Shown here one piece after another: positions 2,056-60,762 of a stretch of DNA of 64,000 nucleotides. Both the position numbers and the translations under genes were made by a program. Source of the DNA: Elainellaceae cyanobacterium (GTDB lineage Bacteria; Cyanobacteriota; Cyanobacteriia; CAZCXK01); the NCBI GenBank assembly GCA_051117555.1, contig JBNPEG010000013.1:22454-86453 (forward strand), given 5' to 3'. Each line of letters begins with the position of its first letter. Position 1 is the first letter of the stretch. Under the pieces are notes generated by a model, which saw only the letters and a program-made list of their open reading frames with translations, ran no database searches and was not told the origin of the DNA.

Positions 2056-2201
2056 TGTATCAAGACAGCATACAGACTATTCGACTAAAGCCCTACGGGC
2101 TCAGGTTTGTGTGGTGAACCCGCGCGGCGCGAGAGTTCACCACACGTTCAGCGTCCTAACGCGAGAGCGTAAGGCTATAAACAGTGGCTCTGTGTAGGAT
2201 T

Positions 2202-3983: not shown

Positions 3984-4084
3984 AGTGAATTAACCTAAAC
4001 GAGACGTATCTAAAATCATGACTCAGATTATCAACAGGGATTTCTGAGATCTTAAGTCAGATTTGAGAATTCCTGCGGAGAGGT

Positions 4085-8402: not shown

Positions 8403-9074
8403 ATGACCAACCTACCGTCTGAAACGACCCCCCACACTTCAGCAATCGGGCCTCAATCAGTTAGCGGTTCCTATGCACCTTCTGTGCCCCTTTCAGTTTA
8501 TCGAGAGTTGGCAGAAGAATTGCAGACGATTAGGGCTCAGCTAGAGACTGTAACTCAACACAATCAAACCCTGACTCAGCAGAATCAACAGCTGCATCAG
8601 CAGATTGACCAGGTGTTTCAATCGGCTCTATCCCTCCATCAACTGGTTAATGACCAAAACGAGCAAAATCAGCATGCCAAGCCGGATGAATCTGTTCTGC
8701 ACGTCTCTGATGAGATTACAGAAGAACTAAAGCGAGCCCTGCTGATGCAACCTCGTGCTGCCTCCTCCCCTCCCCGGTCAGACGCCGAACGAACTGAGTC
8801 TCCAACGATCATGCTTCCGTTTAGCTCTAATGAGGCTCATGGGGCTGCGGGAGCACTTTTTATAGACGAAAAATCTCAACGCGTTGCCAACTCATCAACG
8901 TCTACGCGAAGTTTTGGAGGGCTATGGCTTAAGCTAACCATTGTCGTCATTATCATTACGGCATTTTGTACAGGGTTTGGAGTGATTTGGTTTCTTCAAA
9001 AGCAAAATACCAATACTCCATCCCCCGTTTCCCGGGCAGTCGATTCTATTGAAGCGTCGATACGGCTGGAGTGA
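8403..9074 (+). CDS. Hypothetical protein, Gln-rich coiled coil with C-terminal transmembrane anchor
   Basis: 223 aa. QQNQQLHQQIDQ heptad-like region. Single hydrophobic segment LWLKLTIVVIIITAFCTGFGVIWFL near the C-terminus. Confidence 0.55.
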   Translation: MTNLPSETTPHTSAIGPQSVSGSYAPSVPLSVYRELAEELQTIRAQLETVTQHNQTLTQQNQQLHQQIDQVFQSALSLHQLVNDQNEQNQHAKPDESVLHVSDEITEELKRALLMQPRAASSPPRSDAERTESPTIMLPFSSNEAHGAAGALFIDEKSQRVANSSTSTRSFGGLWLKLTIVVIIITAFCTGFGVIWFLQKQNTNTPSPVSRAVDSIEASIRLE

Positions 9075-22019: not shown

Positions 22020-23162
22020 GTGTTTCAATTGATACAGGAAAGAGCATTCTGGCTAGGGTGGGCATGTCTTCCAGGAATCGGGCCAATTCTTATTCGACGG
22101 CTGCATCAGCACTTTGGCCTTCTCTCTGTGGCTTGGGCTGCCGATATTCCCGCGTTAGTAGAAGTAGAAGGAATTGGCTTTCAGACGGCGGAAGCGATCG
22201 CTCAAGAACGGTCAAAACTAGACCCAGAACAGCTTTTATCTCACCAGCTCCAAGACAATCCCCACTTTTTAACTCCAGCCGATTTCGATTATCCTCAACT
22301 GCTGCTCGAAATTCCAGATCCGCCTCCCGTTTTGTATTATCACGGGCAGATCGATTCAGCAGAAACTCAGGGAAACATTCAGGCGATCGCCCTCGTGGGA
22401 ACTCGTAATCCTACTGAGTACGGAAAACGGTGGACTCGCATCATTAGCAGAGCATTAGCCCAGACAGGGTTCACTGTCGTGTCAGGGTTAGCCGAGGGCA
22501 TCGACACGGTTGCCCATCAGTGTTGTTTAGAAGTCGGTGGACGAACCATCGCCATTTTGGGCACTGGTGTAGATGTCGTATATCCAGCATCGAATCGAAA
22601 GCTAGCTCAGGCGATTGGCAACCAAGGACTACTCTTGAGTGAATATCCGGCGAAGACGCAACCCGATCGGGCCAACTTCCCGCGTCGAAACCGCATCATT
22701 GCTGGGCTATGCCGCGCTACGTTAGTGCTAGAAGCACCTACAAAGTCAGGAGCGCTGATCACGGCCCAGCTTGCCAACGACTATGGACGAGATGTCTATG
22801 CGTTGCCTGGATCGCTTGATCAACGGAATTCGTTGGGCTGTCTCCATCTCATCGAAAAGGGCGCTCAATTGATTTTAGGAGAAAATCACTTACTAGACGC
22901 TTTAGGAACGTTGCCGCAGTTTCAAAAACGATTTGATGCGCCTTCTACTCCTAATCAATTGTCCTTGCTCAATCCATCCCCAATGCCACTAGAACCGGAT
23001 TTAGATTGCGTTTTGAGAGCAGTTGGTTTAGAGCCATCAGCCTTTGATTTGATCGTTCACGATTCTGGCTTGCCAACGTCCTCGGTGTCGAGTGCCCTCT
23101 TTCAATTAGAACTCATGGGATTGGTAAATCATCTTCCCGGAATGCTGTATCAGCGTTGCTAA
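22020..23162 (+). CDS. dprA: DNA processing protein DprA (Smf)
   Basis: 380 aa with GTG start. GTRNPTEYGKRWT, VVSGLAEGIDTVAHQ and ALPG blocks of the DprA Rossmann domain. Confidence 0.85.
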   Translation: MFQLIQERAFWLGWACLPGIGPILIRRLHQHFGLLSVAWAADIPALVEVEGIGFQTAEAIAQERSKLDPEQLLSHQLQDNPHFLTPADFDYPQLLLEIPDPPPVLYYHGQIDSAETQGNIQAIALVGTRNPTEYGKRWTRIISRALAQTGFTVVSGLAEGIDTVAHQCCLEVGGRTIAILGTGVDVVYPASNRKLAQAIGNQGLLLSEYPAKTQPDRANFPRRNRIIAGLCRATLVLEAPTKSGALITAQLANDYGRDVYALPGSLDQRNSLGCLHLIEKGAQLILGENHLLDALGTLPQFQKRFDAPSTPNQLSLLNPSPMPLEPDLDCVLRAVGLEPSAFDLIVHDSGLPTSSVSSALFQLELMGLVNHLPGMLYQRC

Positions 23163-24388
23163 GGTGATTCAGACGGGTGGCTCCGATGGAGAACAATCAT
23201 TGTCGAACCAATTACCGGACTGCGAGCAAGCAAATGGCCTTGAGGATCTAGAAGGTCTAGTGCTTTAAACTCTAAGTCGCTGGCTCTATTCAACATTTCA
23301 TTAGCAAGTTGGTCTTGGCGGGAATCAGGCAGCTCGTACCAGTTGTCACTGATATTGACTGTCAACCGGCTGCTGCGAAAGTTGGCCTGCACCGATTGAA
23401 TGAGCCCCTCTGCATATTGGCTAGTAATGTCTGCAACTTCATCCTGAATGGCTGCAATTAAGCTTTGTTCGGGAGTCAATTCTAAGGGAGGAGACGTCTC
23501 AGCCGCTCTCGTTTCAGATTGCTCACCTACCCGGTCTGACGGCGGCATCGAGGCGTCAGGCGTTTCTACTGCGATCGTTTTATCTGCTGTGCTCGGTTCT
23601 TGAATTGGAGAGGGTTGAACTCGTTCGGGAGCTTGAGCAGACGAAGAACCCGGCATTCCTCCGATCAACACGACGAGCAAGATAATAAGGGTGCTGGTCA
23701 CAATCGGAGGAGAGAAAACCGTTCGCCACGACTCAGGGAGGCGATCGCGCACCTGATTGAGCCGCCTAGACCACCAAATCCAGGCTTGCTGAAGTTTCGC
23801 CACACTTTGGTCGAGAACAGCCCACGTTTGAGATTGAGGGGTATCGTGAGAGCCAATTGCTGATGCCTCTGGGGCGGGAGACTCTAGGCGATGCGCTGCC
23901 CATTCGGAGGCTTCTGCTAATACGTTTAAAGTTCGAACACTTTGAGTTCTAAGAATCGGCAGAACTCGATGCCAAACATTTTGAGCGGTATTTAACGGAT
24001 TGCCCGCTTTTGCCTCAGGCGAGCGCGTCTTGGGTGACGCTGTTTGAGACCTATCGCTCTCAGTTTTGGCAGCGATCGCCTGCTCGTCTGAGGCATTGGC
24101 AGCATCGACAGCCGCGCCATTGCGAGGTTGGGAATTTGACGCGGCAGACTCGACCAATGGCGAGGGCGTCTCAATGCGCGCAATGCTCCATTGGATTGCA
24201 CGAGACAATCCATGAAATGCCCTGATGCTTTGAGTGCGGAGGATTGGCTGTGCAGTTTTCCAAATGCCCCGCAGACGATCGGGTAGAGCGATCGCTGGCC
24301 GAGAACGATGGGGCGATCGCTGACTATTCGATTCCGAAGTCGCCTGATTGCTATTCGATTCCGAAGCCTTAGACGAGTCGTTCGACAT
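23159..24388 (-). CDS. Hypothetical membrane protein with duplicated ~35-aa N-terminal motif
   Basis: 409 aa. Internal repeat (...PILRTQSIRAFHGLSRAIQWSIARIETPSP / ...PILRTQSVRTLNVLAEASEWAAHRLESPAP). One TM. 4-nt convergent overlap with dprA. Confidence 0.5.
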   Translation of the reverse strand: MSNDSSKASESNSNQATSESNSQRSPHRSRPAIALPDRLRGIWKTAQPILRTQSIRAFHGLSRAIQWSIARIETPSPLVESAASNSQPRNGAAVDAANASDEQAIAAKTESDRSQTASPKTRSPEAKAGNPLNTAQNVWHRVLPILRTQSVRTLNVLAEASEWAAHRLESPAPEASAIGSHDTPQSQTWAVLDQSVAKLQQAWIWWSRRLNQVRDRLPESWRTVFSPPIVTSTLIILLVVLIGGMPGSSSAQAPERVQPSPIQEPSTADKTIAVETPDASMPPSDRVGEQSETRAAETSPPLELTPEQSLIAAIQDEVADITSQYAEGLIQSVQANFRSSRLTVNISDNWYELPDSRQDQLANEMLNRASDLEFKALDLLDPQGHLLARSPVIGSTMIVLHRSHPSESP

Positions 24389-35156: not shown

Positions 35157-36065
35157 TTAGCGCACTGCAAACCGACGCACTGCTAGCAAACTGCCCATTA
35201 ACCCCACCGATCCTCCGAGAGCAAGCAATGTTAGCGGAAGTAAAATCGTTTGTTGGGGCGTTAATCTTAGACCATCGGCAAGAAATTGAATGAAATCAGG
35301 CTGCTGAGTCACTAATCGGCTTACAAATCGTTGAATGCCGATGATAAATCCCCACGAAATCATAGCGCCTGCAAGACCAAAGGTGATGCCTTGAAGAATG
35401 AATGGAAAATAAATCCAGAGGGCTGTAGCTCCAACAAGCTGCATTACTTCGATTTCACGCCGTCGAGCCATCACAATCAGTCGAATTGTAGTAGTGATCA
35501 CGGCGATCGCTGTTAACGTGAGGACGGTCGTAATGATAAAGCTGACCCAATTAAGCCCCTGGTTAAGTTGGGCAATCCGTCTGACGGCTTCATCTACATA
35601 TTGCACATCATCGACGCCTTGCATCTGTCTCATCTTTTCTGCTAAGGCAGGCACGACCTCTGAATTAGATGCTTTGACTTTCAGCTCATCCACTAAGGGG
35701 TTGCCATTAAGTTGCTGTGTTGCCCCTGGAATATCAGAGAGGCCCATATCATGAATCAATTCTTCCCATGCCTTTTCCTTAGAAACTGCGGTGACGGCTG
35801 TAACTTCTGGCATTGATTCGACAAATGGCTGCAAATTTTCGGCTCGCACTCCCGCATCTAAATAGACCGATACCTCAAGCTGGCTGCCAAACTGGTTTAG
35901 GAGTTGCTCAAGTTGCCAGGAGGCGTGCAGGCTGATTCCAAATAGAAATAAAAGCACCGTTACCGTGCTCACGGCTGCCCAGTTCATCCATCCGCCCCGC
36001 TTTAGACCCAGTAATGTCTCTCGAAGCAAATAGTCGGCTTTCGTGATAAATTCTAGCAACCGCAC
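35157..36065 (-). CDS. ftsX: Cell-division ABC transporter permease FtsX-like
   Basis: RETLLGLKRGGWMNWAAVSTV N-terminus. Periplasmic domain. IEVMQLVGAT motif. 4 TM. Confidence 0.85.
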   Translation of the reverse strand: MRLLEFITKADYLLRETLLGLKRGGWMNWAAVSTVTVLLFLFGISLHASWQLEQLLNQFGSQLEVSVYLDAGVRAENLQPFVESMPEVTAVTAVSKEKAWEELIHDMGLSDIPGATQQLNGNPLVDELKVKASNSEVVPALAEKMRQMQGVDDVQYVDEAVRRIAQLNQGLNWVSFIITTVLTLTAIAVITTTIRLIVMARRREIEVMQLVGATALWIYFPFILQGITFGLAGAMISWGFIIGIQRFVSRLVTQQPDFIQFLADGLRLTPQQTILLPLTLLALGGSVGLMGSLLAVRRFAVR

Positions 36066-36285: not shown

Positions 36286-36879
36286 TTGCTGCTGTTCATC
36301 AATACAAGCTCTATGACTTCTCAAATTCTGGTTGAAAAGAAAAAGCTGGCCAAGCCTCCATTAGAGCTACATTATCTGGGCGATCGCTTACTGCGCCAGC
36401 CGACAAAGCGCATTGCTAAAGTTGATGATGACGCACGGCAGCTAGCTCGTGATATGTTGCAAACGATGTATAGCGAAGATGGCATTGGTTTAGCAGCGCC
36501 CCAGATTGGCATCAATAAGCAGATGCTAGTCGTTGATTGCGAGCCTGATAACTCGGCAAATCCGCCGTTGGTTTTAATTAATCCGGTAATTCGCAAATCC
36601 AGTCGAGACGTGTGCGTTATCCAAGAAGGCTGTCTCAGCATTCCAGGCGTTTTTCTAGATGTGACACGCCCTGAGGTTATTGAGGTTGCCTATAAAGATG
36701 AAAGCGGTCGCCCTAAACGGTTGACGGTCAATGGGTTGCTTGCCCGCGTGATTCAGCATGAAATTGACCATCTAAACGGGGTTATGTTTGTAGATCGAGT
36801 CGACAATGCTCTAGCCCTCAATCAGGAACTGGCAAAACACGGATTTTCGGTTGAAGCCGTAAAGCCATTTGAAGGCTAA
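36286..36879 (+). CDS. def: Peptide deformylase
   Basis: GIGLAAPQIG, EGCLSIPG and HEIDHLNG motifs. Confidence 0.9.
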   Translation: MLLFINTSSMTSQILVEKKKLAKPPLELHYLGDRLLRQPTKRIAKVDDDARQLARDMLQTMYSEDGIGLAAPQIGINKQMLVVDCEPDNSANPPLVLINPVIRKSSRDVCVIQEGCLSIPGVFLDVTRPEVIEVAYKDESGRPKRLTVNGLLARVIQHEIDHLNGVMFVDRVDNALALNQELAKHGFSVEAVKPFEG

Positions 36880-37044: not shown

Positions 37045-37239
37045 GTGACCCCTAAAAGCGGTTTGTTTCTCGCAGGCTCTTGTATAATGGCGATCGCCGC
37101 CGTCGGTTCAGTCTTTGAACTCTCCTCTGGAACACCACAGCTCGGCAGCTCGATTACAACTGTAATTTTGATTCTAAGTATTCCGTTGGCTGGCATTCTT
37201 TTTTATGCGGCTGTGCGAGATGCACGCGCGAATCAGTGA
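37045..37239 (+). CDS. Small hypothetical membrane protein (64 aa, 2 TM)
   Basis: Hydrophobic ORF only. Confidence 0.3.
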   Translation: MTPKSGLFLAGSCIMAIAAVGSVFELSSGTPQLGSSITTVILILSIPLAGILFYAAVRDARANQ

Positions 37240-37369: not shown

Positions 37370-38764
37370 ATGACCGAACCTTATCATCAAACTACAGCTT
37401 TGCTTTGGCGGCTTTTCCCCGGGAGCCGAAAGCGATCAGAATACCACCATCTATCATCTGATAGAGAGTTTACGGTGGGACGCGACCCTCGATGTGATGT
37501 AACCTTCGATTACTTGATTCATAGCGAGGTGTCTCGTCAACACCTAAAAATTTGCTCCTTGCCCAACGCTTTCGGACTGTGGCAAGTTTGTGATCTCAAC
37601 AGTTCAAATGGCACGTATGTTAATGGCGAGCGCGTGCGTGATTGCCGTATTTTGAATCACGGCGATATTATTTCACTCGGTCGTCGAGGTCCTCAATTTA
37701 TCTTTGAATTGCAGTTTTATCAACCGTTTCAGCAAGACCCTTCCCATTTTCTTGACTCTCCTGAACTGACCACAAAAGCATCGACAAGCCGTGCTATCTC
37801 TCGATCTGGATCACGTCCATCTAATCCGTTTAACGCGACTGACCCCGCAACTCTAACTCAGCTCTTCCCTATCATTTCTACAGGGCGCGAGCTGGCGCAA
37901 AAAGCTCACTTGATACCGGTCATCATTACCATTTCGTTTGTTGTTCTGATGTTTGCCGCTGTGGGTCAGACAGAATGGTTTAACTTTTTGTTAGCAGCCT
38001 ACATATCAGGGGCTGCTTATTATTTTGTGTATCGTCTTTGCGATAAGCGAAAGCCATGGTGGCTCATTGTCGCGTCAGCAACGATAACCGCGCTTTTATT
38101 GGTCAGCCCACTTCTTCAAGGATTTTTGTGGTTTTTTCGAGGAGTATTACCTGGGCAACCTCAAAGCGATTCAACCTCAGTTAATCTCATCAGCTTAGTG
38201 TTCCAAATGTTCATTGGAGCTGGGCTGATGGAAGAACTCATTAAGGCAATTCCGGTGCTCTTGGCCTATGTGATTGGGATGACTGTAAAGTCAACTCATC
38301 GTCAAGAGCAAATTGGGATTCGTGAACCTTTAGACGGTATTTTGCTAGGTACAGCCTCGGCAATCGGTTTTACACTAGTCGAGACGTTGGGTCAATACAT
38401 TCCTGCTATGGTCAACAGTGTCGCAGCGGGAGGGGAGACAGGAGATCTGATGGGACTACAACTTCTGATTCCTCGCATTCTTGGCTCAGTCTCAGGGCAC
38501 ATGGCATATAGCGGGTACTTCGGTTATTTCATTGGGCTGAGCGCATTTAAACCCCGCCAACGATGGAAAATTTTAGGCATTGGCTATTTAAGCTCATCGG
38601 TCTTGCATGCCCTCTGGAATGTGATGGGGTTCATTAACCCCATCGTTTTAGCTTTAGTAGGCGTGCTTTCATATGCATTTTTAGGCGCAGCCATTCTTAA
38701 AGCTAGAACGTTTTCTTTACATGAGTCGCAGCAAGGGGATAGTCACTCTACACACATGCCTTAA
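37370..38764 (+). CDS. FHA-domain protein fused to PrsW-family membrane protease domain
   Basis: N-terminal FHA (FTVGRDPRCDVTF...SRQH...NGTYVNGERV). C-terminal 6-8 TM with PrsW-like EELIKAIPV...HALWN blocks. Confidence 0.7.
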   Translation: MTEPYHQTTALLWRLFPGSRKRSEYHHLSSDREFTVGRDPRCDVTFDYLIHSEVSRQHLKICSLPNAFGLWQVCDLNSSNGTYVNGERVRDCRILNHGDIISLGRRGPQFIFELQFYQPFQQDPSHFLDSPELTTKASTSRAISRSGSRPSNPFNATDPATLTQLFPIISTGRELAQKAHLIPVIITISFVVLMFAAVGQTEWFNFLLAAYISGAAYYFVYRLCDKRKPWWLIVASATITALLLVSPLLQGFLWFFRGVLPGQPQSDSTSVNLISLVFQMFIGAGLMEELIKAIPVLLAYVIGMTVKSTHRQEQIGIREPLDGILLGTASAIGFTLVETLGQYIPAMVNSVAAGGETGDLMGLQLLIPRILGSVSGHMAYSGYFGYFIGLSAFKPRQRWKILGIGYLSSSVLHALWNVMGFINPIVLALVGVLSYAFLGAAILKARTFSLHESQQGDSHSTHMP

Positions 38765-38846: not shown

Positions 38847-39500
38847 TTACTGCTCTGATGAATTTCTAGCCGGAAGTTGGGCAATGGCATATCGAGCGAT
38901 CGCCAAACTGAGTCGAGCCTGCTCTACACCCGACAAGTCAGTCCAGGCGGCATAGCGGACCGATCGAAGCGCAGCTTCGAGTTGATCTGTGTTCGAGCCT
39001 CTCATTGAGAACGCCAAGGGACGTGCTAAAACCTGCAAATCATCATCCCCCCAATTGGGCAATAGATCATTGACACACCGAACAAGCTGTTCTGCTAAGG
39101 ACAAATTTGCTGTCAATACGCGCTGAGCCTGCTCAGCAATGCTGAGCAAAACCGGTTGAGGGACTCGAGTCCCGAAGCGGGATACTAGCTCGGTGTGAAG
39201 TTCTTGAACTTGCTCAGGCGAGGATGCTGTGTCCCAGATTTGGTCTAATTGAGCGAAAAAGCGTTGACTCCGACTTGCGATGTCCTCTGTTGGCCAATCC
39301 GAAGCAACAGACTGCTCTAATTCTTCGAAATACGCATCTGCTTCTACTTGGCTTGGTTCCCACGGATAGGAAGAATCAACATTAAAGATAAGCTTCACGA
39401 GTTCTAGCTCTGCTTCTGCTTGAAATCGAGAAATCGGGGTGTTTGAGGAATCGCTGTTCATCGGGCTGCTCCTAAAATATGCATCAACCAAACCTGACAT
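38847..39500 (-). CDS. Hypothetical acidic protein, last gene of the CHAT/PP2C cluster
   Basis: 217 aa. No recognisable domain. Lies 61 nt downstream of the CHAT-FHA gene, co-oriented. Confidence 0.5.
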   Translation of the reverse strand: MSGLVDAYFRSSPMNSDSSNTPISRFQAEAELELVKLIFNVDSSYPWEPSQVEADAYFEELEQSVASDWPTEDIASRSQRFFAQLDQIWDTASSPEQVQELHTELVSRFGTRVPQPVLLSIAEQAQRVLTANLSLAEQLVRCVNDLLPNWGDDDLQVLARPLAFSMRGSNTDQLEAALRSVRYAAWTDLSGVEQARLSLAIARYAIAQLPARNSSEQ

Positions 39501-39561: not shown

Positions 39562-41232
39562 TCAGGTTTCAGGGGAGGATGTTGACCCATCGATTACAAA
39601 TTCAAGCACTTGGCTTTGAGAACTTCCAAACTTGAGCTGAGTTTTTGACTGGAGCTGAACCTCTTGCCGATGCACTTTCTGCCATCCGTTGACGCCTAAG
39701 ACCAAGGTGCCAAAGCGAGAGAAATCTCGTAAATAAAATGAGGGTTCCCGTTGCCCTGCTAAAAATGTATCTCGATAAAAAATCTCGGCGTGCTTTCGAG
39801 AAACGCCCGGATCGTGCAAGACCAAATCATTTCCTTCCCATTTTCCGACTCGCATGATGCCACCTTGAATTCGCCATACCTGAGGATGTGAGCCCAGAGA
39901 ACGAATCGATGCAGCCGGAGTGTTGCGACCAATCCAGGTGGATGAATTGACAGGAATCTCAGTGACTCCTTCCGAAAGCGGACGCATTAATTCTCCATTA
40001 AACTCTGGGTGCATATAAAGCACGGGCAGAGTCCAAGCAGGCTGATTAAATTTATAGAGTGTCAACAAATGCTGACGGGCGATCGCCACTGCCCGATCGA
40101 CGGATGACCGATCAACCAGCGCTTGGGCAAAGACGTCGATAAAACTCAATGCTTCTCGGTCGGCAATAGAGTCCCGCATTGCCAGCACGGCTGGAACTCC
40201 GTGGTGAATCAGAACTTCAGCCAGACTGCTGCGCGGAACCGCGTCCTGAGAGACACGATCAGATTGAGCGCCCCAGCAGGCATTGAAAACTGCTAGCTTA
40301 ACTTGACAGCGTGTCAGGACCTGTGCCAATTCCGTGCCATTGATGGTGGCATCCGGTCGAAGAAATAGCAAGCCCCCACTTGGAGCAGGTTCGCCATGAC
40401 CTGAATAGAATAAAACATTATAGCGACGAGTTTCGAGTTGGTCGATGAGTTCTGCTTCAGTGGGTTGCACGAGCGTTGTCACAGAAGACAACATCGGCGA
40501 ATCAAAGTTTTCTCCATGTCGCGATGTTGACTGTTCTAAAATCCCAGTGAGCGTTTCCGCTTCCTGTTCAAGTTCAAGGACGGATTTGGCTGCACCAACA
40601 TCTGCTGAGGGTCTAGCGATCGCTTCATCTTGACCCAAAACCAACAAAATATCGAGGGACTGATCTGATCGTAAGGGGGGTAAGGGATCAACTGCGCTTG
40701 TCGTGCGACTAAATAAAATCTGCTGACTCAGAGAGACGGCTTGTTTACCCGGCTCCGGCTGCATGATTTCCCAGGGAAGGCTAATCAAATTTGGATCTCG
40801 AATCTCCAGGCGTAATCGCAGGGGTTTACCCTGACCAATTGCGATTCCCTGGCTTTGGCGAAAGCTGCCTTGGATCGGTCCATCAACGAGCCATTGCCAA
40901 AGGCTTACTCCTAAATACTGCATCAGGCGACTGCTGTAACTCGTCGTCTGCCCCGATGGCATCATATCTGTACCATTGAAGACAGGCGGCAGGACAGCAA
41001 AGGCATCCATGTTGAAGGCAACCTGAGACATGCCATCAGAGTTTTGAGTTGTAGCGAACATGCTCTGCCATGCTTGCCAAGCCTGTGTTAGCGAATCAGT
41101 CCACAAACGGTCGTAGTGAACATAGCCCTCTGGTGAAGGGGCACGCAACACCCAGATTGCGTAATGGTCTGGATCGGCAGCTTGTAAGCGAGCGATCGCC
41201 AGGCTTAAGCAGGGAATCTCAAACAACGGCAT
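39562..41232 (-). CDS. CHAT-domain (caspase-like) protease fused to C-terminal FHA domain
   Basis: His/Cys dyad context YSGHG ... FNACWGA. C-terminal FHA (GKWEGNDLVLHDPGVSRKHAEI...GTLVLGVNGW). Confidence 0.75.
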   Translation of the reverse strand: MPLFEIPCLSLAIARLQAADPDHYAIWVLRAPSPEGYVHYDRLWTDSLTQAWQAWQSMFATTQNSDGMSQVAFNMDAFAVLPPVFNGTDMMPSGQTTSYSSRLMQYLGVSLWQWLVDGPIQGSFRQSQGIAIGQGKPLRLRLEIRDPNLISLPWEIMQPEPGKQAVSLSQQILFSRTTSAVDPLPPLRSDQSLDILLVLGQDEAIARPSADVGAAKSVLELEQEAETLTGILEQSTSRHGENFDSPMLSSVTTLVQPTEAELIDQLETRRYNVLFYSGHGEPAPSGGLLFLRPDATINGTELAQVLTRCQVKLAVFNACWGAQSDRVSQDAVPRSSLAEVLIHHGVPAVLAMRDSIADREALSFIDVFAQALVDRSSVDRAVAIARQHLLTLYKFNQPAWTLPVLYMHPEFNGELMRPLSEGVTEIPVNSSTWIGRNTPAASIRSLGSHPQVWRIQGGIMRVGKWEGNDLVLHDPGVSRKHAEIFYRDTFLAGQREPSFYLRDFSRFGTLVLGVNGWQKVHRQEVQLQSKTQLKFGSSQSQVLEFVIDGSTSSPET

Positions 41233-41336: not shown

Positions 41337-43892
41337 TTAACGACATTCACCGAGTTGGGATGCAGTCAGATTTGGGTTAGGCAATACAAGTGGAGACACT
41401 TGAGTTTCTTGAATCCACCCAACATCACCGGGTTCTAATAATCGAGGTGATAAAGGAACTGAAGCACTTGGATTGGGTTCTGGAGAATCGGACGAGGATG
41501 ACACACTATTGTCAGGAACATCTGTCAAACCCGGGACAGAGCATACTTTCAGACGAACCCATCGCCCTTGCTCTTGAAATTCCTGCTTTCCTAATACCTG
41601 TAAAATACTCCCTGCTGGAATCGTACCCGCAACGAGAATCTCACGATTATCTACCGAATCGCCAGACTGGGATGGCAATGAATTGGTCGCATTGGGAGAA
41701 ATTGGGCGCCTCGAATGAGATGCCGATTCGCTCGGTGCTGCGGGAAATGAGCGATCGCCAGGATGGGGAACCAATTGCAATGGCTGGTCTAATGTTAAAT
41801 CATCTGCCCCGGTTGATCGGCTCACCTGGATTAGAGAACCGACATCAATAGAGATAGGACTGACAGTGGGGCTGGGATCAGAATCAGGCGGTAGTGTAAC
41901 CTCTGATACTGGGTCTTGAGAGATCTGACGGATATTAAATAATGAGCTGAGCCGATTGCCCAACGAGGGGATCAAGAGATAAATCAATGTTCCGCCCAAC
42001 CCCACCAGTAGAATAATTCCAAGCAGCAGGGGAGCGACTCGTTGCCGTCTAGATGGCGTCGATGAAATCACTTGAGTAGTGTCTGCAGACGAAACGGGCT
42101 CTTTAGTCGGAGACTCGGATTGAAACTCGGTTTGAGCAGATGGAGGCGATTGAATTTGGGTGGGCTGGGATGCCTGCACCCGAGTTTGGGGTGAGACGGA
42201 CGTTGGCTGACCAACCTGGTCAGACGGAAGGGCGATCGCCCGCGTTTGCCTCGGTTGATAGTAAATCAGCCCGACCGTGACATTATCGTAGCCATTGTGG
42301 GTATTGGCGATCGCAATCAGCTGTTGAGCGACGTCAGCCAAATTATATTTGTTCTCAATCGCAGGCAAAATAACGGTTTCCCAGAATGTCTCGACGCGAT
42401 CGTTATCGCTTAGACCATCTGAACAAAAGAGAAAAATGCTGTCTTCATCAACCAGGAAACGTTGAACCGTTGGATGGAGTGAAACAGATGGCCCCATTCC
42501 CAGCGCCTGCACTAGTGATCCTGAGCTGGGGTGCTGGAGGGCGCTACGGTAGGTGTTGTAGCCCAGTCGAACCTCTCGGGAGGCAATGTCATCATCCTGA
42601 GTAATCTGATGACATCCCCGGTGAGTAATCCAGTAGGCTCGACTGTCGCCGATATGGGTGACATACAGCTCAGACCCCAACATCAAACCCATGACAAGGG
42701 TTGTTCCCATCCGCTCTCGCTCGCGTCGATGCTGCGCGTCGTTATGTTGGCTAATCAAGTCATTCGCCACGCACACGCTCGTCGACAACTCTAGCTGCAG
42801 TTGATCGGAGGCTAAGGTTTCAAATTCAATGTGCTCTAGGCGCTGTTTGATCGACTCAATTGCCAAGTGGGAGGCTACGTCTCCGCCTTGATGCCCGCCA
42901 ATGCCGTCACACACAATCAGAAAAGCGTCTTCATGACTGACATCAGAGCGATCGCTAATTGAATATGTCTTTTGGGTGCCACTTGGGGGGTAACATGCGT
43001 CCTCATTTTGGTGGCGACTTGGGCCCTGATCGGTATAGCTGACAACCTCTACCTGTTGAGATTGAGACTGTTCTGCAATCCTCACCGCCTGATCGAGTCG
43101 ATCGATCAATTGCTCAGGCTGATGAATTTGCCCTCGGATCATCAGTTGGCAAAGCGAGATTAAAAACGATGAAATCTCAGGCTCAGCGTCTTTTGCCAAG
43201 CTCAACCAGCGATGCCCAAGTTGGTCTAGGGACGGAGCCGGATTGCCCATATCGGATCGCAGTTCGAGCAATCGGACAATGGATCCCTCAACTCGCAATA
43301 AATCTGGAATTAGAACACTCGATGCCGCCTGTTCGTCAATGAGAGGTTGCCATAATCGGGCAATTTGCCAGAGCCAGTTTAATTGACGCATTGCGGAGGC
43401 GCTTAGCCACGCATCAACCAGAGACGGCAGACATTGCACATCCGATGTGCGGGATTTTGACACGCTGGTAGTATCTGAGTCGTCAAATCTCTGATGCTGT
43501 GTTGATGGCTGAGTAGACTTAGATAAACTCTCTGCAATAGGGGCATGCTCCAAGACGATAATCTCACCCGCTGCGTCTGATTCAGATTCGATTGGGATGG
43601 CTCCATATATCTGAGGAACATGTAATTGGTAGGGAGAGAGCCGCAAATATGGAAGCAGAGCATAAGAGATTTCACGGGGCTCATCCGGTGGTAACCCCGG
43701 TTTAGTATCCAAAAAAATGCGATCGCCCTTATACAAATAGCGATTTAAAAAAATTTCACCAGCAGCACACGCCCTTCCCTCCAAATTGAGCGCCCAAAGG
43801 TATCGCTTCACGAGAGGGGTTTGACATTTTTGACAGAATCTGCTGCTCTCTGAGTTAGGAGCTTGGCACGTATAGTTAGAACAATAGAGCAT
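41337..43892 (-). CDS. Multi-domain PPM/PP2C Ser/Thr phosphatase: N-terminal double CxxC zinc ribbon, unknown middle domain, PP2C, one TM, C-terminal SH3-like domain
   Basis: CSNYTCQ...CQKCQT zinc ribbon. PP2C motifs DGIGGHQGG, HIGDSRAYW and SDGLSDN. TM LLLGIILLVGLGGTLIYLLI. Confidence 0.75.
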   Translation of the reverse strand: MLYCSNYTCQAPNSESSRFCQKCQTPLVKRYLWALNLEGRACAAGEIFLNRYLYKGDRIFLDTKPGLPPDEPREISYALLPYLRLSPYQLHVPQIYGAIPIESESDAAGEIIVLEHAPIAESLSKSTQPSTQHQRFDDSDTTSVSKSRTSDVQCLPSLVDAWLSASAMRQLNWLWQIARLWQPLIDEQAASSVLIPDLLRVEGSIVRLLELRSDMGNPAPSLDQLGHRWLSLAKDAEPEISSFLISLCQLMIRGQIHQPEQLIDRLDQAVRIAEQSQSQQVEVVSYTDQGPSRHQNEDACYPPSGTQKTYSISDRSDVSHEDAFLIVCDGIGGHQGGDVASHLAIESIKQRLEHIEFETLASDQLQLELSTSVCVANDLISQHNDAQHRRERERMGTTLVMGLMLGSELYVTHIGDSRAYWITHRGCHQITQDDDIASREVRLGYNTYRSALQHPSSGSLVQALGMGPSVSLHPTVQRFLVDEDSIFLFCSDGLSDNDRVETFWETVILPAIENKYNLADVAQQLIAIANTHNGYDNVTVGLIYYQPRQTRAIALPSDQVGQPTSVSPQTRVQASQPTQIQSPPSAQTEFQSESPTKEPVSSADTTQVISSTPSRRQRVAPLLLGIILLVGLGGTLIYLLIPSLGNRLSSLFNIRQISQDPVSEVTLPPDSDPSPTVSPISIDVGSLIQVSRSTGADDLTLDQPLQLVPHPGDRSFPAAPSESASHSRRPISPNATNSLPSQSGDSVDNREILVAGTIPAGSILQVLGKQEFQEQGRWVRLKVCSVPGLTDVPDNSVSSSSDSPEPNPSASVPLSPRLLEPGDVGWIQETQVSPLVLPNPNLTASQLGECR

Positions 43893-53251: not shown

Positions 53252-54451
53252 CTATTCTGGTTTCTTAGACTTGCTTGACGAAGGATTGCCAGCGATCGAT
53301 TGCTCTGTTTTCGTCAAAATATCGGGAACTAAGATTTCGCTGAATCCAGCAGTAAAGGCGAGCACAATATACAAATATTTTTGAGGAGTGCCCGATTGAA
53401 TGCTGGGAAATGCCACAATATTGGTCTCAAACAGCGCCACAATGAAAATCGCAAATGCAGTGCCGATGATCGGCTTAAAAAATCCAGAGAAAAAGGGAGC
53501 CATCGATTTTGCCCGATTTTGAGCATCAACCGAGCGCAACCGCACCATGACGCTTACTACGCTGCCAATACTGCCAGAGACGACGACGAGAAAAAATCGC
53601 TGCACTTCTTCGCGGGTAAATAAGGGTTGTTCAGAACCAAGCCCCCCACCCCTGTCTGCCGGTTGAACCTCGATCCGACCGGAGGCTGAGGGAGCAGGCG
53701 TAATAATCCCTGACTGGGGAGATCCAGATTGCGGAGGTTGCCCCGAGGTGACCGTATTGTCCTCAATATCGTCGGTAGGACCCAAGGGCGATTCTTGAGC
53801 TTGCTGAGCTGCAAGGTCAAACCCTAGATCGAAGCCGAGGTTGAATCCAGCACTGTAGTCTTCTTCGATACGCGATCGCACAGAAACAAACAGCAGCGTC
53901 GCCATGACAGGGGTAATCACAAAGATGATAAAAAACCATGTCAGCCCCGATATGAGCTGGCTAGCAGGCGAGCCATTCGCACTCAAAATTGCCCAAAGAG
54001 GCGATCGATAATAGCGAATCTCCCCTGCAATGCTCTTCCGAATTTTGCGGGCTAGGAGCACATTGCCCGGCATCTCTTTGGGAGTTGAGAACCCCGGTAA
54101 TTTTCTCAGCCAACGACGAATGCCAGTTTCATACATCGGTTTTGCTGGCTCGCTGTCAATCCCATCCTTGGATTCGGGGTCTGCCATCAACAGAGAGGCG
54201 GCAAAACGCGCCATATGCAGCAGATCGATATTGTTAGTCAAATCAATATACGGCAGCAGCTCGAGCAGTACCCCGAGTTCTCGATAAACAGGCTCGCTTA
54301 GCCGCTTGGAGAAAATTTTGTCTTGAATAGTTTGGATGAGATCTTTGACTCCCTGACCAATTTGTTGATCAATATCATCGACCTCCATAGCAGAGTCTAG
54401 TGGGGCGTCTGAATTCGAGCGGTCTGAGTCATAGAGTGGCTGGTGGGTCAT
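53252..54451 (-). CDS. Hypothetical polytopic membrane protein
   Basis: 399 aa. Several TM segments. GFNLGFDLGFDL repeat. No known family. Confidence 0.5.
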   Translation of the reverse strand: MTHQPLYDSDRSNSDAPLDSAMEVDDIDQQIGQGVKDLIQTIQDKIFSKRLSEPVYRELGVLLELLPYIDLTNNIDLLHMARFAASLLMADPESKDGIDSEPAKPMYETGIRRWLRKLPGFSTPKEMPGNVLLARKIRKSIAGEIRYYRSPLWAILSANGSPASQLISGLTWFFIIFVITPVMATLLFVSVRSRIEEDYSAGFNLGFDLGFDLAAQQAQESPLGPTDDIEDNTVTSGQPPQSGSPQSGIITPAPSASGRIEVQPADRGGGLGSEQPLFTREEVQRFFLVVVSGSIGSVVSVMVRLRSVDAQNRAKSMAPFFSGFFKPIIGTAFAIFIVALFETNIVAFPSIQSGTPQKYLYIVLAFTAGFSEILVPDILTKTEQSIAGNPSSSKSKKPE

Positions 54452-54567: not shown

Positions 54568-56379
54568 CTAGAAATTTTGCTGGACGTATTCTAGAATACC
54601 ACGGGCGATCGCCTGAGCCATGCGACTTTGAAACCCAGGATCGGCTAGTAGGGGAGCGTCTTGGCCTCCCGTGACGAATCCGGTTTCCAATAGCACTGCG
54701 GGCATAGATGTATTGCGAATGACATAAAATCGAGCCCGCCGAACACCGCGATCGGGGCGTCCGGTCAGTTGCACCATGTTGCGGTGAATAATCTGCGCCA
54801 TGCGATACCCCCGATCGGAATAGTAATAGGTTTCGATGCCATTGACATCAGGGCGGCTCAAATTAATCGCATTGGCATGAATACTGATAAAAATATCTGC
54901 ATTCACCCGCTCAGCGATTTGCACGCGAGGTTCTAAGTCAAGATCGCGATCGTCTTGGCGCGTCATGACAACTGACATCCCCTGCTGCTGAAGGATTTGC
55001 ACGACTTGCCGTGAAATGGGTAAGACTACATCTTTTTCTCGCAAGCCACCAATGCCAACCGCTCCTGGATCAGGCCCCCCATGCCCTGGATCAATGACAA
55101 TCACCACTTGACTATTCGGTATCGTGGAGGGCACAGTAGGCAGCGTGACCGGATTTCCAGGCGAATAGACAGGCGGCGTTGGCGTAACGGGAACCGATTG
55201 CTGAAGCGGCAGCGCCAGGAGTTGCTGACTCGGTTGGCTAATTTCGCCAATCTGCGCCCTCGCCGCAGGCTGTAGCGAAATAATGACCGTATCGTTTTCT
55301 TCCTGGCGCAATCGCACTCGCAAAAGGGGGCTATTTGCACCAAGGCGTGGATCCGCAATCTGGTCTGCTAAGCGAGCATTAGGAATTGTAATTTGATAAT
55401 CTGTTGTAGCTCGATCCCAACCGCCGGTAAAGGTCTCTATAGGGCGATCGGCTCGAATTAAAAGCTGAGTTCCGCCGTTTGCCAACTCGATGGACTGAAT
55501 CGTTGCGGGTTGTTGAACTGGCTCAGCGGCTGTGCGAGGAATCTGGAGAGAACTGGGAGGGCGATTTTGGATTGGTTCTCCTCCTTGAGGAATTACGACA
55601 ACCCCGCCAAACGTGCTCACCGTAGCCTGTAGATCTACCTCTCGATCTGCCAAGTCCAGCGTTACCCTAGCCCGTGGGGGCGACTCGTCTTCTTGACTCA
55701 GCTCAATACGATTGACTCCAAAGCTATCGAGGTTCAGCTCTCGCTGAGCGAGTTGGCTGGACAACGCCGTATCTTCAAAATCAATCGTGACTTGTTCTTG
55801 TCGGCGGTTCCGCTCAACCTCGATCTCAGGCGTTGCGCCGCTCGTCCGCACAAAAATACCATCTGGCGTAACCCGGATACCCTCTAAAACCGTTGCTGCT
55901 CCGGGTACGATCGGTGATGTGTCTCCCGATGTAACCATTGCTAGAGGTGAAGACTCGTCTGTTTCTGCTACTGATTCATCAAGCGGCTGAGGATCTGGAA
56001 TTTCGACCACCCACTGAGTTGGAGTCGCGCCACGCACCCGGACTTGCTGCGGATCAATGGTATAGCCTTCATTAAGCTCAACCACAATTCGAGTCGTTTG
56101 CGCATCAAATTGTCCTACGCGGACTTCTCGAATCGCCCCTTCTCCGGCTTGATTCACCAATGGCTGACCAAAACTCGTTCCGGGCAGGTCAATCACCAAG
56201 CGCGTTGGATTGGGAATGAGTTGGGCTCTAGGTTGGACGGCGGTATCGGTCGTAAAAATCAGGCGATTTTCATCCGCATTGAAACGCCAAAATTGCAATC
56301 GTGCTGCCTCAGCAGGAGAGGACAACAGCAAAACGCCTATAACACCCAATAAACTTGGGAAAATCCCGTGCAATCTCAC
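54568..56379 (-). CDS. amiC: N-acetylmuramoyl-L-alanine amidase (AmiC-like) with N-terminal AMIN domains
   Basis: Signal peptide. AMIN-like ARLQFWRFNADENRLIFTTD. C-terminal Amidase_3 (IDPGHGG...SIHANA). Confidence 0.85.
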   Translation of the reverse strand: MRLHGIFPSLLGVIGVLLLSSPAEAARLQFWRFNADENRLIFTTDTAVQPRAQLIPNPTRLVIDLPGTSFGQPLVNQAGEGAIREVRVGQFDAQTTRIVVELNEGYTIDPQQVRVRGATPTQWVVEIPDPQPLDESVAETDESSPLAMVTSGDTSPIVPGAATVLEGIRVTPDGIFVRTSGATPEIEVERNRRQEQVTIDFEDTALSSQLAQRELNLDSFGVNRIELSQEDESPPRARVTLDLADREVDLQATVSTFGGVVVIPQGGEPIQNRPPSSLQIPRTAAEPVQQPATIQSIELANGGTQLLIRADRPIETFTGGWDRATTDYQITIPNARLADQIADPRLGANSPLLRVRLRQEENDTVIISLQPAARAQIGEISQPSQQLLALPLQQSVPVTPTPPVYSPGNPVTLPTVPSTIPNSQVVIVIDPGHGGPDPGAVGIGGLREKDVVLPISRQVVQILQQQGMSVVMTRQDDRDLDLEPRVQIAERVNADIFISIHANAINLSRPDVNGIETYYYSDRGYRMAQIIHRNMVQLTGRPDRGVRRARFYVIRNTSMPAVLLETGFVTGGQDAPLLADPGFQSRMAQAIARGILEYVQQNF

Positions 56380-58045: not shown

Positions 58046-58993
58046 CTATATTTCAGCAGGAAATCCGGCAATTTCAGTGACCGTATAAAGCGGGCGAGCT
58101 TTCACTTCTTCATAGATACGCCCGATATATTCGCCTAAAATGCCGATACAAATGAGCTGGACTGCCCCAAAAAAGAGAATTGCCATGATGATTGTGGCAT
58201 AGCCCGTCAATGGCGAGTTGGGTTGAAGAAAGCGCCAATAGACAACTAGCACCATCATCAAGAGAGCAACGGCTGCTGAAAATAAGCCGATATACGTTGC
58301 AATGCGCAGCGGAATTTTTGAAAAGGAAACCAAGCTATCGATCGCCAGCGCAAGGGATTTGCCAAACGTATATTTAACGGGTCCGGCGTATCGAGGCGAA
58401 CGATTATAGCGCACGGCTGTTTGTCGAAAGCCAATCCAGGCGCGTAATCCTCGAATATATCGATTGCGTTCAGGCATCGCGTTTAGTGCATCCACGACCC
58501 GCCGATCCATGAGACAAAAATCTCCGGTGTCCGTAGGAATGTCTACATCAGCGAGTCGCTGGAGGAGGCGATAAAACAAATGAGCGGTGAGACGTTTGAA
58601 CCAATTCTCCCGCTGCCGAGTAGTCCGCTGAGCATACACAACCTGATATCCGTTTTGCCACTGATGCAGCATATCTGGAATTAGCTCTGGAGGATCTTGC
58701 AAGTCGGCATCTAGAACGACCACAATCTGACCCCGTGCAAAATTAAGTCCAGCCGTGACAGCCGTTTGATGACCGAAGTTGCGGGCAAAATTGAGATAGC
58801 AAACCCTGGAATCGTGGTGTCTCAATTCTCGAATAATGAGCAAGGAGCGATCGCCACTGCCGTCGTTAACGAAGATAAATTCAGCGATTCCCTCTAATCG
58901 ATTGATGACATCGCAAAGCCGTCGATAGAGTTCGTGCAATGAGTCTTCTTCGTTATAGACCGGGATCACGAGAGAATAGCTCACCTCACTCAT
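58046..58993 (-). CDS. GT2-family polyprenyl-phosphate glycosyltransferase (DPM1/ArnC-like)
   Basis: [10 protein letters not shown]...VNDGSGD. DAD motif. C-terminal TM helices. Confidence 0.8.
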
Positions 58994-60762
58994 GGATGGG
59001 GCCCCGCGACATTGTGCCAGCGGGTCAGTAAGGGAGCTGCATTCAGCAATGTTTGAGTATACGGGTGTTGAGGATTCGAGAAAATTTCATCGGTAGTTCC
59101 GTATTCAACAATTTGACCCGCTTGCATCACTGCAATGCGATCGCAAAAGTATCGGGCAACCCAAAGATCGTGGGTGATAAACAAATAGGTCAGGTCGAAC
59201 TCTTGCTTTAGCTCTAGCATGAGTTCTAACACTTGACTCTGAATGCTGGCATCGAGCATGCTCACGGGTTCATCGCAGATAAGCAATTTAGGTCGAGTGA
59301 TGAGCGCCCGGGCGATCGCCACTCGCTGCTGCTGCCCGCCGGAAAGCTCATTTGGATAGCGATGATAAAACTCATCCGGTGGCGTCAACCCAACTCGCTC
59401 TAGCATGGCGTTCACGTGGGCAGCGATGTTGTCTCCGTGTGCCAACTGATGAATCAGCAATGGACTGGCAATGCCTTGTCCCACAGTCATGAGTGGATTT
59501 AAGCAGGCATGGGGATCTTGAAAAATCATCTGCATCTGCCGACGCTGTCGCCGCATTTCATCTGGCGATAACGCTGTTAGGTCTTGTTGGAGAAACTCGA
59601 CGGTGCCTGATGTGGGGTGTACGAGCCGCAAAATTGTCCGCGATAATGTGCTTTTCCCACAGCCCGACTCACCCACCAAGCCCAAAATCTCACCCGGAAA
59701 AATATCAAGGCTGACATCATCGACGGCTTTAATTGTGCGATCGCTCGTCTGTGAAAAGAGCCGAGCGATAAAATTTTGCTCTAAGGTGTAATGCTGCTTG
59801 AGATGGCGAATGCTCAGAAGCGGTGGAGAAGACGATGAAATGGATGAATTAGCTGAGCGAATTTGAGGTGACGATGGGGCGATCGCTCCATCACGCGCTC
59901 TGCTGCCTTCTCTGCCCTCGCTGCCGCTTTCTCCGCGTTGGAGGTGTAGTGCGGCGGATAACAGCGATTGGGTATAGGAATGTTGGGGGTTGGTGAGGAC
60001 AGACTCGACCGTTCCAGTTTCAACGATCTTACCGTCATACATGACAGCAATGCGATCGCAATATTCGCCGACGAGCGTCAAATCATGGGAGATTAACATC
60101 AACGCCATCTGACGCTCCCGGCAGAGGCGGGTCAGTTCCTTTAAAATCTGTGCCGAAACCGTGACATCTAAGCTAGTCGTGGGCTCGTCTGCAACAATCA
60201 ACTTTGGATTTAGAAGTAACGCTAGGGCGATCGCCACGCGCTGCCGCATCCCTCCGCTAAACTCGTGAGGATATTGTCCCCACCGACTTGCCGGAATATT
60301 CACAGCATCTAAAATCTCAATGCCACGCTGCCTGGCATCTTGGCGAGAAAGGTGAGGGTCATGAGCGAGCAGAGTCTCAATGCAGTGGTTGCCAATGGTC
60401 ATCAGCGGGTCGAGGCGCGTCATTGGGTCTTGAAAAATAAGGGCGATCGCTTCTCCGCGAAATGTGCGGAGCGCATCAGCCGATAGATCAAAAACCGATT
60501 GCCCCTTAAATAAAACCGTTCCCTCAATGTGAGTGGATGACGGCAATAGTCGCATCGCAGCGCGTCCGAGCGTGGATTTTCCGCAGCCTGATTCTCCAAC
60601 TAATCCAAGCCTTTCTCCAGGCATCAGAGTTAGCGAGACATCATCGACTGCCCAAGTCTGAGGTGACGCAGCGACTGACTGCTTAGCAGATGACAGATTT
60701 TGAGGACTCGTTTGCGGATAAGCGACCCGAACGTGTTCGATGCAAAAGAGAGCATTGCTCAT
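58990..60762 (-). CDS. ABC transporter ATP-binding protein with two fused ATPase domains (Dpp/Opp D+F type)
   Basis: 590 aa. Two Walker A (GESGCGKST x2). Two LSGG signatures. Opp/Dpp C-terminal oligopeptide-ABC extension. 4-nt overlap with the GT2 gene. Confidence 0.85.

Follow-up and report, generated by a model that had tools for sequence, protein, structure and literature searches.

The analyzed DNA is a 64,000-nucleotide stretch from an Elainellaceae cyanobacterium (GenBank assembly GCA_051117555.1, contig JBNPEG010000013.1, positions 22,454 to 86,453 of the forward strand). This whole 64-kb stretch is referred to as the window, and all coordinates are given in it. We describe a minus-strand gene that encodes a protein with a caspase-like CHAT protease domain and a C-terminal FHA domain (further called CHAT-FHA) and a short orphan gene directly downstream of it (the partner). 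The features of the two genes that are used below are as follows.

39562..41232, minus strand: CHAT-FHA protease gene; 556 amino acids (aa), ATG start, 61.6 kDa, isoelectric point (pI) 5.4
41053..41232, minus strand: N-terminal ~60 residues of CHAT-FHA; HetF-type beta-hairpin region with the family motif PCLSLAIARL, conserved in orthologs
40045..40908, minus strand: CHAT (clan CD caspase-like) domain; residues 109-396, Pfam PF12770
40396..40398, minus strand: codon of predicted catalytic His279 in YSGHG; invariant in 250/250 orthologs and 60/60 HetF-family proteins
40276..40278, minus strand: codon of predicted catalytic Cys319 in FNACWG; 250/250 orthologs, aligned to HetF Cys295
39961..39963, minus strand: codon of Thr424, candidate phosphosite in a linker motif; Thr in 248/250 orthologs, Pro427 in 99%
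39625..39852, minus strand: FHA domain with an atypical pocket; residues 461-536, Pfam PF00498
38847..39461, minus strand: orphan partner gene, directly downstream of CHAT-FHA; 204 aa counted from Met14 of a 217-aa open reading frame (ORF) that starts at 39500

Protease domain and its relationship to HetF

The start codon of CHAT-FHA is supported by its orthologs, which share the same first Met. Both domains are recognized by Pfam well above the thresholds: the CHAT match (E-value 5.9e-22, 78.9 bits against a cutoff of 24) spans profile positions 5-273 of 289, and the FHA match has an E-value of 2e-12 and 47.8 bits against a gathering threshold of 20.7. These matches bear out the domain call of an earlier reading of the window made from the letters alone (the sequence-only reading). 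The N-terminal part, which that reading had taken for an unknown region of ~250 aa, turned out to belong mostly to the CHAT module. The Pfam match begins at residue 109, similarity to the HetF family begins at approximately residue 90, and residues 1-60 are the counterpart of the beta-hairpin at the N-terminus of HetF ('CLSLAIARL...HYAIWVLRA' in CHAT-FHA, 'EFxISVTPV...EYLVRTE' in HetF). No transmembrane (TM) segment is predicted in the 556-aa protein by a check for hydrophobic segments, and no TPR repeats are found by Pfam, the C-terminus being occupied by the FHA domain instead.

An AlphaFold2 model of CHAT-FHA, built on an alignment of 24 orthologs, has an overall predicted local distance difference test score (pLDDT) of 58.7, with values of 60-89 for the caspase core (residues ~190-400) and ~86 for the FHA domain. 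The top Foldseek match of the model is the SAVED-CHAT protease filament 8tl0 (E-value 3.5e-8, probability 1.00, 16% identity), and dozens of solved FHA domains are matched as well (E-values 1e-7 to 1e-5, TMt 0.6-0.79). A search of the Protein Data Bank (PDB) with the full-length sequence yielded nothing significant. The predicted model supports a caspase-like fold of the CHAT core.

The positions of the catalytic dyad were examined in an alignment of CHAT-FHA, 12 orthologs, and 60 HetF-family proteins from a representative search. The YSGHG motif occupies residues 276-280 and the FNACWG motif residues 316-321; the columns of His279 and Cys319 contain an invariant His and Cys in every aligned sequence, including all 60 HetF-family proteins. 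Thus, the two contexts that the sequence-only reading had singled out do stand at the CHAT catalytic positions. In one HetF-family protein, P0273, the aligned Cys is residue 295, the same number as in validated HetF. HetF is a proven protease that cuts PatU3 after Arg117, mutation of its Cys295 abolishes this cleavage, and CHAT proteases are related to separase C50 (PMC9457339). In a second set of CHAT-FHA orthologs, His279 is conserved in 139/139 and Cys319 in 138/139 proteins, and Gly278, Asn317, and Glu301 are essentially invariant over 139-250 orthologs. Glu301 (250/250), an acidic residue after a conserved Gly, stands where HetF has an invariant Asp; such a residue would be compatible with a preference for a basic P1 residue. 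The LPWE motif and Arg176 are invariant in both families.

Judging from these columns, the protease domain is intact, of the HetF type, and under strong purifying selection. The residues flanking the dyad differ from those of HetF (GHG versus GHS, NACWG versus NSCRG), and proteolytic activity of the CHAT-FHA family is a prediction from sequence; both points favor a pseudo-protease scaffold, in which the CHAT fold serves for binding only and phosphoproteins are recruited via the FHA domain. However, invariance of His279, Cys319, Gly278, Asn317, and Glu301 is the pattern expected from selection on catalysis, and we consider such a scaffold very improbable.

In a representative all-against-all search, approximately 25 clusters of full-length orthologs are followed by hundreds of proteins of 750-1100 aa that match only residues ~90-420 at 33-39% identity. 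These longer relatives are CHAT+TPR proteins that score 730-840 bits on the NCBIfam HetF model. CHAT-FHA reaches only 166 bits on this model (NF045509), against an equivalog cutoff of 1200, and aligns to model positions 63-386 of 836. Because of this score and the lack of TM and TPR segments, CHAT-FHA is assigned not to HetF proper, but to a distinct family that, by sequence, is a sister of this cyanobacterial cell-division and heterocyst protease.

Four long relatives were considered as possible Rosetta-stone fusions and rejected. Three of them (P0246, P0247, P0249) have mere N- or C-terminal extensions or insertions, in the fourth (P0256) the FHA domain is exchanged for a SAV_2336 N-terminal domain, and none joins CHAT-FHA to the partner or to the phosphatase described below. 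P0256 (978 aa) carries the same CHAT core and N-terminal hairpin ('LNFCLAIDRL...HFAIWVL') behind the SAV_2336 N-terminal domain (NCBIfam NF041121, E-value 5e-132) and has no FHA domain; it represents a different sensor on the same protease.

The combination of CHAT with FHA was regarded as unusual in the sequence-only reading, a view that the family distribution does not sustain. At least 586 species-level cyanobacterial genomes (one genome per species) encode a CHAT-FHA relative. The search yielded 1489 matches at E ≤ 1e-5 among scored candidates, and the 120 best of them are all full-length proteins with both domains, 57-92% identical to the query. The best match (92%) comes from a sister Elainellaceae metagenome-assembled genome (MAG), and identity in the 80 best species loci is 55-92%. 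A search seeded with a divergent member reaches Microcystis, Gloeothece PCC 7424, Crocosphaera, Aphanothece, Spirulina, and Oscillatoria. Names in the databases are generic ('CHAT domain-containing protein', 'FHA domain containing protein', 'hypothetical'), names of the clusters are equally uninformative, and no ortholog from a model organism was identified. Sequence comparison thus indicates a large, vertically conserved cyanobacterial family, and the present gene is a typical representative of it. Databases already display this architecture, and its domains are well known; from HetF, the family differs in its regulatory domain and topology, and it is accompanied by the orphan partner.

The orphan partner gene

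The partner gene was absent from the sequence-only reading, and it provides the strongest clue to the system. Its homologs begin at Met14, which was taken as the start instead of the first ATG of the ORF. The product is 100% identical to the NCBI hypothetical protein ACFE0J_02185 from an Elainellaceae cyanobacterium MAG. The protein is acidic (pI 4.35) and contains 14 Arg and a single Lys. The family has no Pfam, NCBIfam, or PADLOC match, and all 299 detected homologs are 'hypothetical' proteins with no Pfam domain. AlphaFold2, run on an alignment of 90 sequences, yields a model with nine helices (pLDDT 69), for which Foldseek finds no relative in the PDB (best E-value 0.65). The invariant positions, Arg residues among them, include the motifs ARP, M-R-G, and the C-terminal ARLSLAIARY. 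The M-R-G motif, which includes Arg154 (codon 39000-39002), lies in a dip of pLDDT between two helices.

To describe the genomic neighborhood, the proteins encoded next to CHAT-FHA in the window were compared by tblastn with the 80 best species loci, and the counts were corrected for the available flank. The partner is found directly downstream of CHAT-FHA, on the same strand, in 74 of the 75 genome loci. The reciprocal test started from the partner in metagenome contigs, and CHAT-FHA is immediately upstream in 59/61 loci. In most of the filamentous lineages examined, CHAT-FHA and the partner look like an obligate gene pair, and in Microcoleus only this pair is retained. A scan for operon promoters and terminators detected no terminator-like site in the interval separating the two genes; its counts were no higher than in shuffled sequence, and it is thus uninformative.

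Several loci deviate from this arrangement. One (L010) has no partner. In another, L104 (FQKF010067315.1), the partner, FHA-PrsW (see below), def, and ftsX are kept, and aroH-like and sppA-like genes replace CHAT-FHA; thus, the partner can persist beside FHA-PrsW with no adjacent CHAT-FHA gene. Loci L081-L084 belong to Gloeothece citriformis PCC 7424 and Microcystis aeruginosa. In PCC 7424, CHAT-FHA follows a 438-aa gene with weak NB-ARC and GerE matches; in Microcystis, where the N-terminal motif has the degenerate form PSLNLAISSL, it follows holA.

When the window is translated in all six frames, the heptapeptide LSLAIAR is found exactly two times, once in each protein of the pair:

41188-41208, minus strand: LSLAIAR, residues 9-15 of CHAT-FHA
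38892-38912, minus strand: LSLAIAR, residues 184-190 of the partner

Each copy belongs to the best-conserved segments of its family, and in composition-matched shuffles a shared 7-mer was observed in 13 of 20000 trials (~6.5e-4). An alignment of the two proteins by hhalign covers only 10 columns with a probability of 3%, so the sharing does not reflect homology. We considered LSLAIAR as a common cleavage or self-cleavage site and rejected this possibility. The Arg of the protease copy is variable (R 202, P 27, S 7 of 250), being replaced by Pro, Ser, Gln, or His in ~20% of the orthologs that have a partner; since it is not strictly conserved, a common site cut after Arg is unlikely. Moreover, the protease copy is strand 1 of the HetF-type hairpin, whereas the partner copy is predicted to be helical. 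The heptapeptide could be a docking motif shared by the two proteins or a coincidence between two amphipathic segments.

FHA pocket, neighboring genes, and gating of the protease

The FHA consensus consists of Gly and Arg (loop 2), Ser and His (loop 3), and Asn (loop 4); the residues in contact with the phosphopeptide are Arg, Ser, and Asn, FHA domains are specific for phosphothreonine (pThr), and Arg102 of Dun1 is among the primary pThr-recognition residues (PMC4037201). The corresponding positions of CHAT-FHA were assigned by alignment to Dun1 and EmbR:

Consensus Gly: Gly463, conserved in 139/139
Consensus Arg ('IGR' of EmbR and Dun1): Lys464; R 195, S 22, K 18 of 250 (Arg 78%, Asn also seen)
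Consensus Ser: Ser478; S 236/250 (94-100% over the ortholog sets)
Consensus His: His481; H 250/250
Consensus Asn: Phe507; F 108, Y 103, N 19 of 250
Position before the consensus Asn (Dun1 Arg102): Arg506; R 249/250 (99.6%)

The FHA fold is certain, and, judging from these residues, its phosphate-binding pocket is plausible but non-standard. The linker between the CHAT and FHA domains is variable and has low pLDDT, except for the motif [ED]-G-[IVM]-T-[EQ]-[LI]-P around Thr424. From its conservation, we propose that Thr424 may be a phosphosite and that the FHA domain would bind it either within the same molecule (in cis, like GarA/OdhI) or in a second one (in trans, like Chk2).

The closest other genes of the cluster are the following.

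41337..43892, minus strand: membrane PP2C phosphatase, 851 aa, upstream neighbor of CHAT-FHA
37370..38764, plus strand: FHA-PrsW intramembrane protease, 464 aa, convergent with the partner; PrsW E-value 2e-35, FHA E-value 5.6e-19
37045..37239, plus strand: small two-TM protein, 64 aa, upstream of FHA-PrsW; two hydrophobic segments
36286-36879, plus strand: def, co-conserved with FHA-PrsW and the 64-aa protein

The phosphatase, noted as a PP2C neighbor already in the sequence-only reading, has all metal-binding motifs intact: DGIGG(329), GDSR(415), DG(492), and DNVT(536). It contains an N-terminal four-Cys zinc ribbon with a weak match to the '4Cys_prefix_kin' model, the PP2C domain (~285-545), a Pro/Ser/Gln-rich linker, and one TM helix (618-645); approximately 250 residues after the ribbon and a C-terminal region of ~200 aa have no family match. 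The Pfam matches to PP2C_2 (39.2 bits) and PP2C (36.5 bits) are both above the cutoff, and NCBIfam gives PRK14559 (E-value 1.3e-76) and Stp1 (5e-47). The gene is located upstream of CHAT-FHA on the same strand in 34 of the 60 loci with sufficient flank and is not adjacent in Microcoleus, Microcystis, and Gloeothece. Adjacency of PP2C is therefore frequent but facultative, and the linkage of the partner is tighter (74/75 versus 34/60).

FHA-PrsW is a second FHA-bearing protease in the same cluster. It occurs in 28/68 genome loci and 29/56 metagenome loci, and its FHA pocket is fully canonical (GR...SRQH...SSNGT); a literature search found no publication on it. The 64-aa protein has a tblastn match in 29 of the 80 loci, always together with FHA-PrsW and Def. 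About half of the loci, from several orders, have both PP2C and the second FHA protein, and the syntenic neighborhood of def, ftsX, ndhM, and DUF4230 is common to several orders as well.

Taken together, these data may be explained by the following scheme, which at present has about an even chance of being correct: CHAT-FHA would be a phospho-gated protease, the partner its substrate or regulator, and PP2C the enzyme that resets the switch. CHAT-FHA is predicted to be a soluble, catalytically competent cysteine protease of clan CD, in which the FHA domain would take the place of the TM and TPR tail of HetF, and which would act with the 204-aa partner as a two-gene unit. By analogy with HetF, its specificity is probably for Arg. 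The partner, a credible Arg-site substrate or bound regulator, would most likely be the substrate, or else a regulator of the securin type, and would be cleaved behind a conserved Arg, for which Arg154 in the invariant Met-Arg-Gly loop is the best candidate. Thr phosphorylation would probably gate the activity or the targeting of the protease. An unlinked, trans-encoded Ser/Thr kinase would phosphorylate the Thr, most plausibly Thr424 of the linker, and this kinase and PP2C together would set the pThr state that is read by the presumably phospho-dependent FHA domain. Binding may occur in cis, as a GarA-like switch, or in trans, as Chk2-like dimerization with proximity activation of a caspase-type protease; the upstream membrane PP2C would then reset the switch. 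In favor of phospho-signaling we count the conserved FHA Gly, Ser, and His together with Arg506, the conservation of Thr424 (248/250), and the frequent presence of PP2C (34/60) and FHA-PrsW (28/68).

A fully specified version of this scheme is more doubtful. It would be a protease-substrate or separase-securin-like switch constituting a sister pathway of HetF-PatU3: phosphorylated Thr424 would cause dimerization through the FHA domain and thus activate the protease, the partner would be cut after Arg, and a regulator of division or the envelope would be released or destroyed, with PP2C and FHA-PrsW belonging to the same circuit.

Several observations weigh against phospho-gating and the role assigned to the partner. 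Two of the three peptide-contacting consensus residues of the FHA domain are non-canonical, with Arg at position 464 in only 195/250 orthologs and Phe or Tyr at 507 in 211/250 (84%), so binding may be weak, altered, or phospho-independent. The usual FHA preference at the third position after pThr is I, L, V, or D, and the residue at this position after Thr424 is Pro, which is atypical and does not match it. A search for kinases in the window found none. None of the Thr residues of the partner is invariant over its homologs; as FHA domains are pThr-specific, it is unlikely to be the pThr ligand, and we rejected it as such. In Chroococcales (Gloeothece PCC 7424, Microcystis), the partner and PP2C are both non-adjacent to CHAT-FHA. 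The N-terminal third of the AlphaFold2 model (residues 1-190) is poor, with pLDDT below 50, and a literature search found no publication or experimental data on any member of the CHAT-FHA family. Phospho-regulated proteolysis, proposed in the sequence-only reading, is still a reasonable hypothesis, and the non-canonical contact residues and the lack of a kinase in the window make it weaker.

The same features of the pocket fit a different scenario, in which the FHA domain is a phospho-independent docking surface, as in YscD/EscD-type folds, and CHAT-FHA and the partner are a constitutive pair of protease and inhibitor or chaperone, similar to separase and securin. Inhibition of the protease would then last until the partner is degraded or displaced, and proximity of PP2C would reflect genome history. 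In the family, Arg is found at its canonical position in 78% of the proteins, with S, K, and N as substitutes, an aromatic residue takes the place of the canonical Asn, and CHAT-FHA also has a weak Pfam match to Yop-YscD_cpl (E-value 0.0012). The far tighter linkage of the partner than of PP2C, the lack of an invariant Thr in the partner, and the kinship of CHAT with separase C50 (PMC9457339) point in the same direction. However, Ser478 (94-100%), His481 (100%), and Arg506 (99.6%) are kept at pThr-recognition positions, most orthologs still have Arg at 464, and its replacement by Lys is conservative. A phospho-independent FHA domain would leave the near-invariant Thr424 of the disordered linker difficult to account for, and PP2C and the second FHA protein accompany the pair in approximately half of the loci from several orders. 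We consider the constitutive pair less likely than the phospho-gated scheme.

CHAT proteases are common in conflict systems. CHAT-FHA could accordingly be an anti-phage or abortive-infection effector of the Craspase or SAVED-CHAT type, with the partner as a toxin or target and the FHA domain sensing infection-triggered phosphorylation. Such a function agrees with the best structural match, a CRISPR-associated SAVED-CHAT protease, with a faint PADLOC match to SAVED_CHAT (E-value 0.003), and with the relative P0256, which combines the same CHAT core with a SAV_2336 N-terminal domain in place of FHA. In PADLOC-DB 2.0, however, none of four proteins has a significant match (best E-values 0.003-0.007, 12-15 bits), and the family is strongly conserved (55-92% identity over 80 species loci). 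The setting is syntenic and housekeeping across several orders, with no mobile-element or defense genes in the window, and the nearest sequence relatives are of the HetF type, whose studied member acts in cell division. In view of the PADLOC results and the housekeeping synteny, the defense function was rejected as improbable.

Otherwise the window is ordinary chromosome, with genes such as ftsX, def, ndhM, ferrochelatase, RNase E, dprA, aspartokinase, and an AmiC-type amidase. Two of them, ftsX (35157-36065, minus strand) and the amidase (AMIN + Amidase_3; 54568-56379, minus strand), are cell-division and peptidoglycan genes, and ftsX is syntenic with the cluster in 11 of the 80 loci; given the divisome role of HetF, their proximity is suggestive but not evidence. 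Four tandem ORFs of ~600 aa lie at 241-7688 on the minus strand. Two were tested and proved to be solute-binding proteins of family 5 (SBP_bac_5), which points to an array of paralogous binding proteins of the oligopeptide/nickel type; the window also encodes an ABC ATPase of the oligopeptide type (58990-60762). Three ORFs have no Pfam match at E ≤ 1e-5: 8403-9074 (plus strand, 223 aa), 23159-24388 (minus strand, 409 aa), and 53252-54451 (minus strand, 399 aa).

Studies of HetF and PatU3 in 2021-2022 revealed a CHAT protease with a single dedicated substrate that controls cyanobacterial division and differentiation. A second HetF-like protease, soluble and equipped with a phosphopeptide-reader domain, is present in a large share of cyanobacteria, including bloom-forming Microcystis and crust-forming Microcoleus, and in most filamentous lineages examined the adjacent orphan is an obvious candidate substrate. 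The pair offers a genetically tractable entry both to targets of Ser/Thr phosphorylation in cyanobacteria and to the control of bacterial caspase-like proteases outside defense. If the phospho-gated scheme is correct, FHA joins SAVED and TPR as sensor domains gating CHAT proteases; if CHAT-FHA is a constitutive housekeeping protease, the interest is modest. The CHAT-FHA locus is a testable lead for cyanobacterial signaling and protease biology and no surprise in kind.

Comparison with known systems

The FHA domain of CHAT-FHA has its best sequence match in the PDB with the FHA domain of Dun1 (2jqj/2jql, E-value 0.08). The two share the Arg of the loop-4 'S-R-x-G-T' motif, Arg102 in Dun1 and Arg506 in CHAT-FHA. 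Dun1 retains the canonical Arg and Asn, whereas the CHAT-FHA family has Lys, Arg, or Ser at the first of these positions and Phe or Tyr at the second. Switches based on binding of pThr by FHA domains are known both in cis (GarA/OdhI) and in trans (Chk2/Rad53), and these provide precedents for an interaction of Thr424 with the FHA domain. At the level of gene order, a parallel is provided by the actinobacterial cluster of FhaA, FhaB, and PstP, as in Mycobacterium tuberculosis, where, as here, two FHA proteins are encoded beside a membrane-anchored PP2C; the FHA domain of FHA-PrsW weakly matches the FhaB/FipA and OdhI models. In the cyanobacterial cluster, by contrast with fhaA-fhaB-pstP, the FHA domains are fused to proteases (CHAT and PrsW), no kinase, RodA, or penicillin-binding protein is encoded, and the pocket of CHAT-FHA is non-canonical.

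Eukaryotic separase (MEROPS C50) is a clan CD protease that cuts after Arg and is phospho-regulated; its fast-evolving partner securin is both a pseudosubstrate inhibitor and a chaperone. Similarity of this system to the CHAT-FHA pair is an analogy only, as no sequence relationship to the cyanobacterial partner is detectable and separase is much larger. The CRISPR type III-associated SAVED-CHAT (8tl0) and TPR-CHAT/Csx29 (Craspase) proteases have the same fold and combine CHAT with a sensor domain and a specific protein substrate. Their sensors are SAVED or TPR domains, responding to cyclic oligoadenylate or target RNA, and are encoded in defense loci, whereas CHAT-FHA has an FHA domain, a housekeeping context, and no PADLOC membership.

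The closest relative of the protease part is HetF (Alr3546) of Anabaena sp. PCC 7120, with 33-39% identity over residues ~90-420. HetF shares with CHAT-FHA the His/Cys dyad, LPWE, Arg176, and the N-terminal hairpin. It is longer (~800-1100 aa), has a TM segment and TPRs in the periplasm, and is a divisome component, whereas CHAT-FHA has 556 aa, is predicted to be soluble, and ends with an FHA domain. The partner has no 'YRSPE' site like that at which PatU3 is cleaved (PMC9457339), and its gene adjoins the protease gene, whereas patU3 and hetF do not adjoin. With these differences, the HetF-PatU3 pair, in which one dedicated regulator is cut after Arg, provides the working model for CHAT-FHA and its partner.

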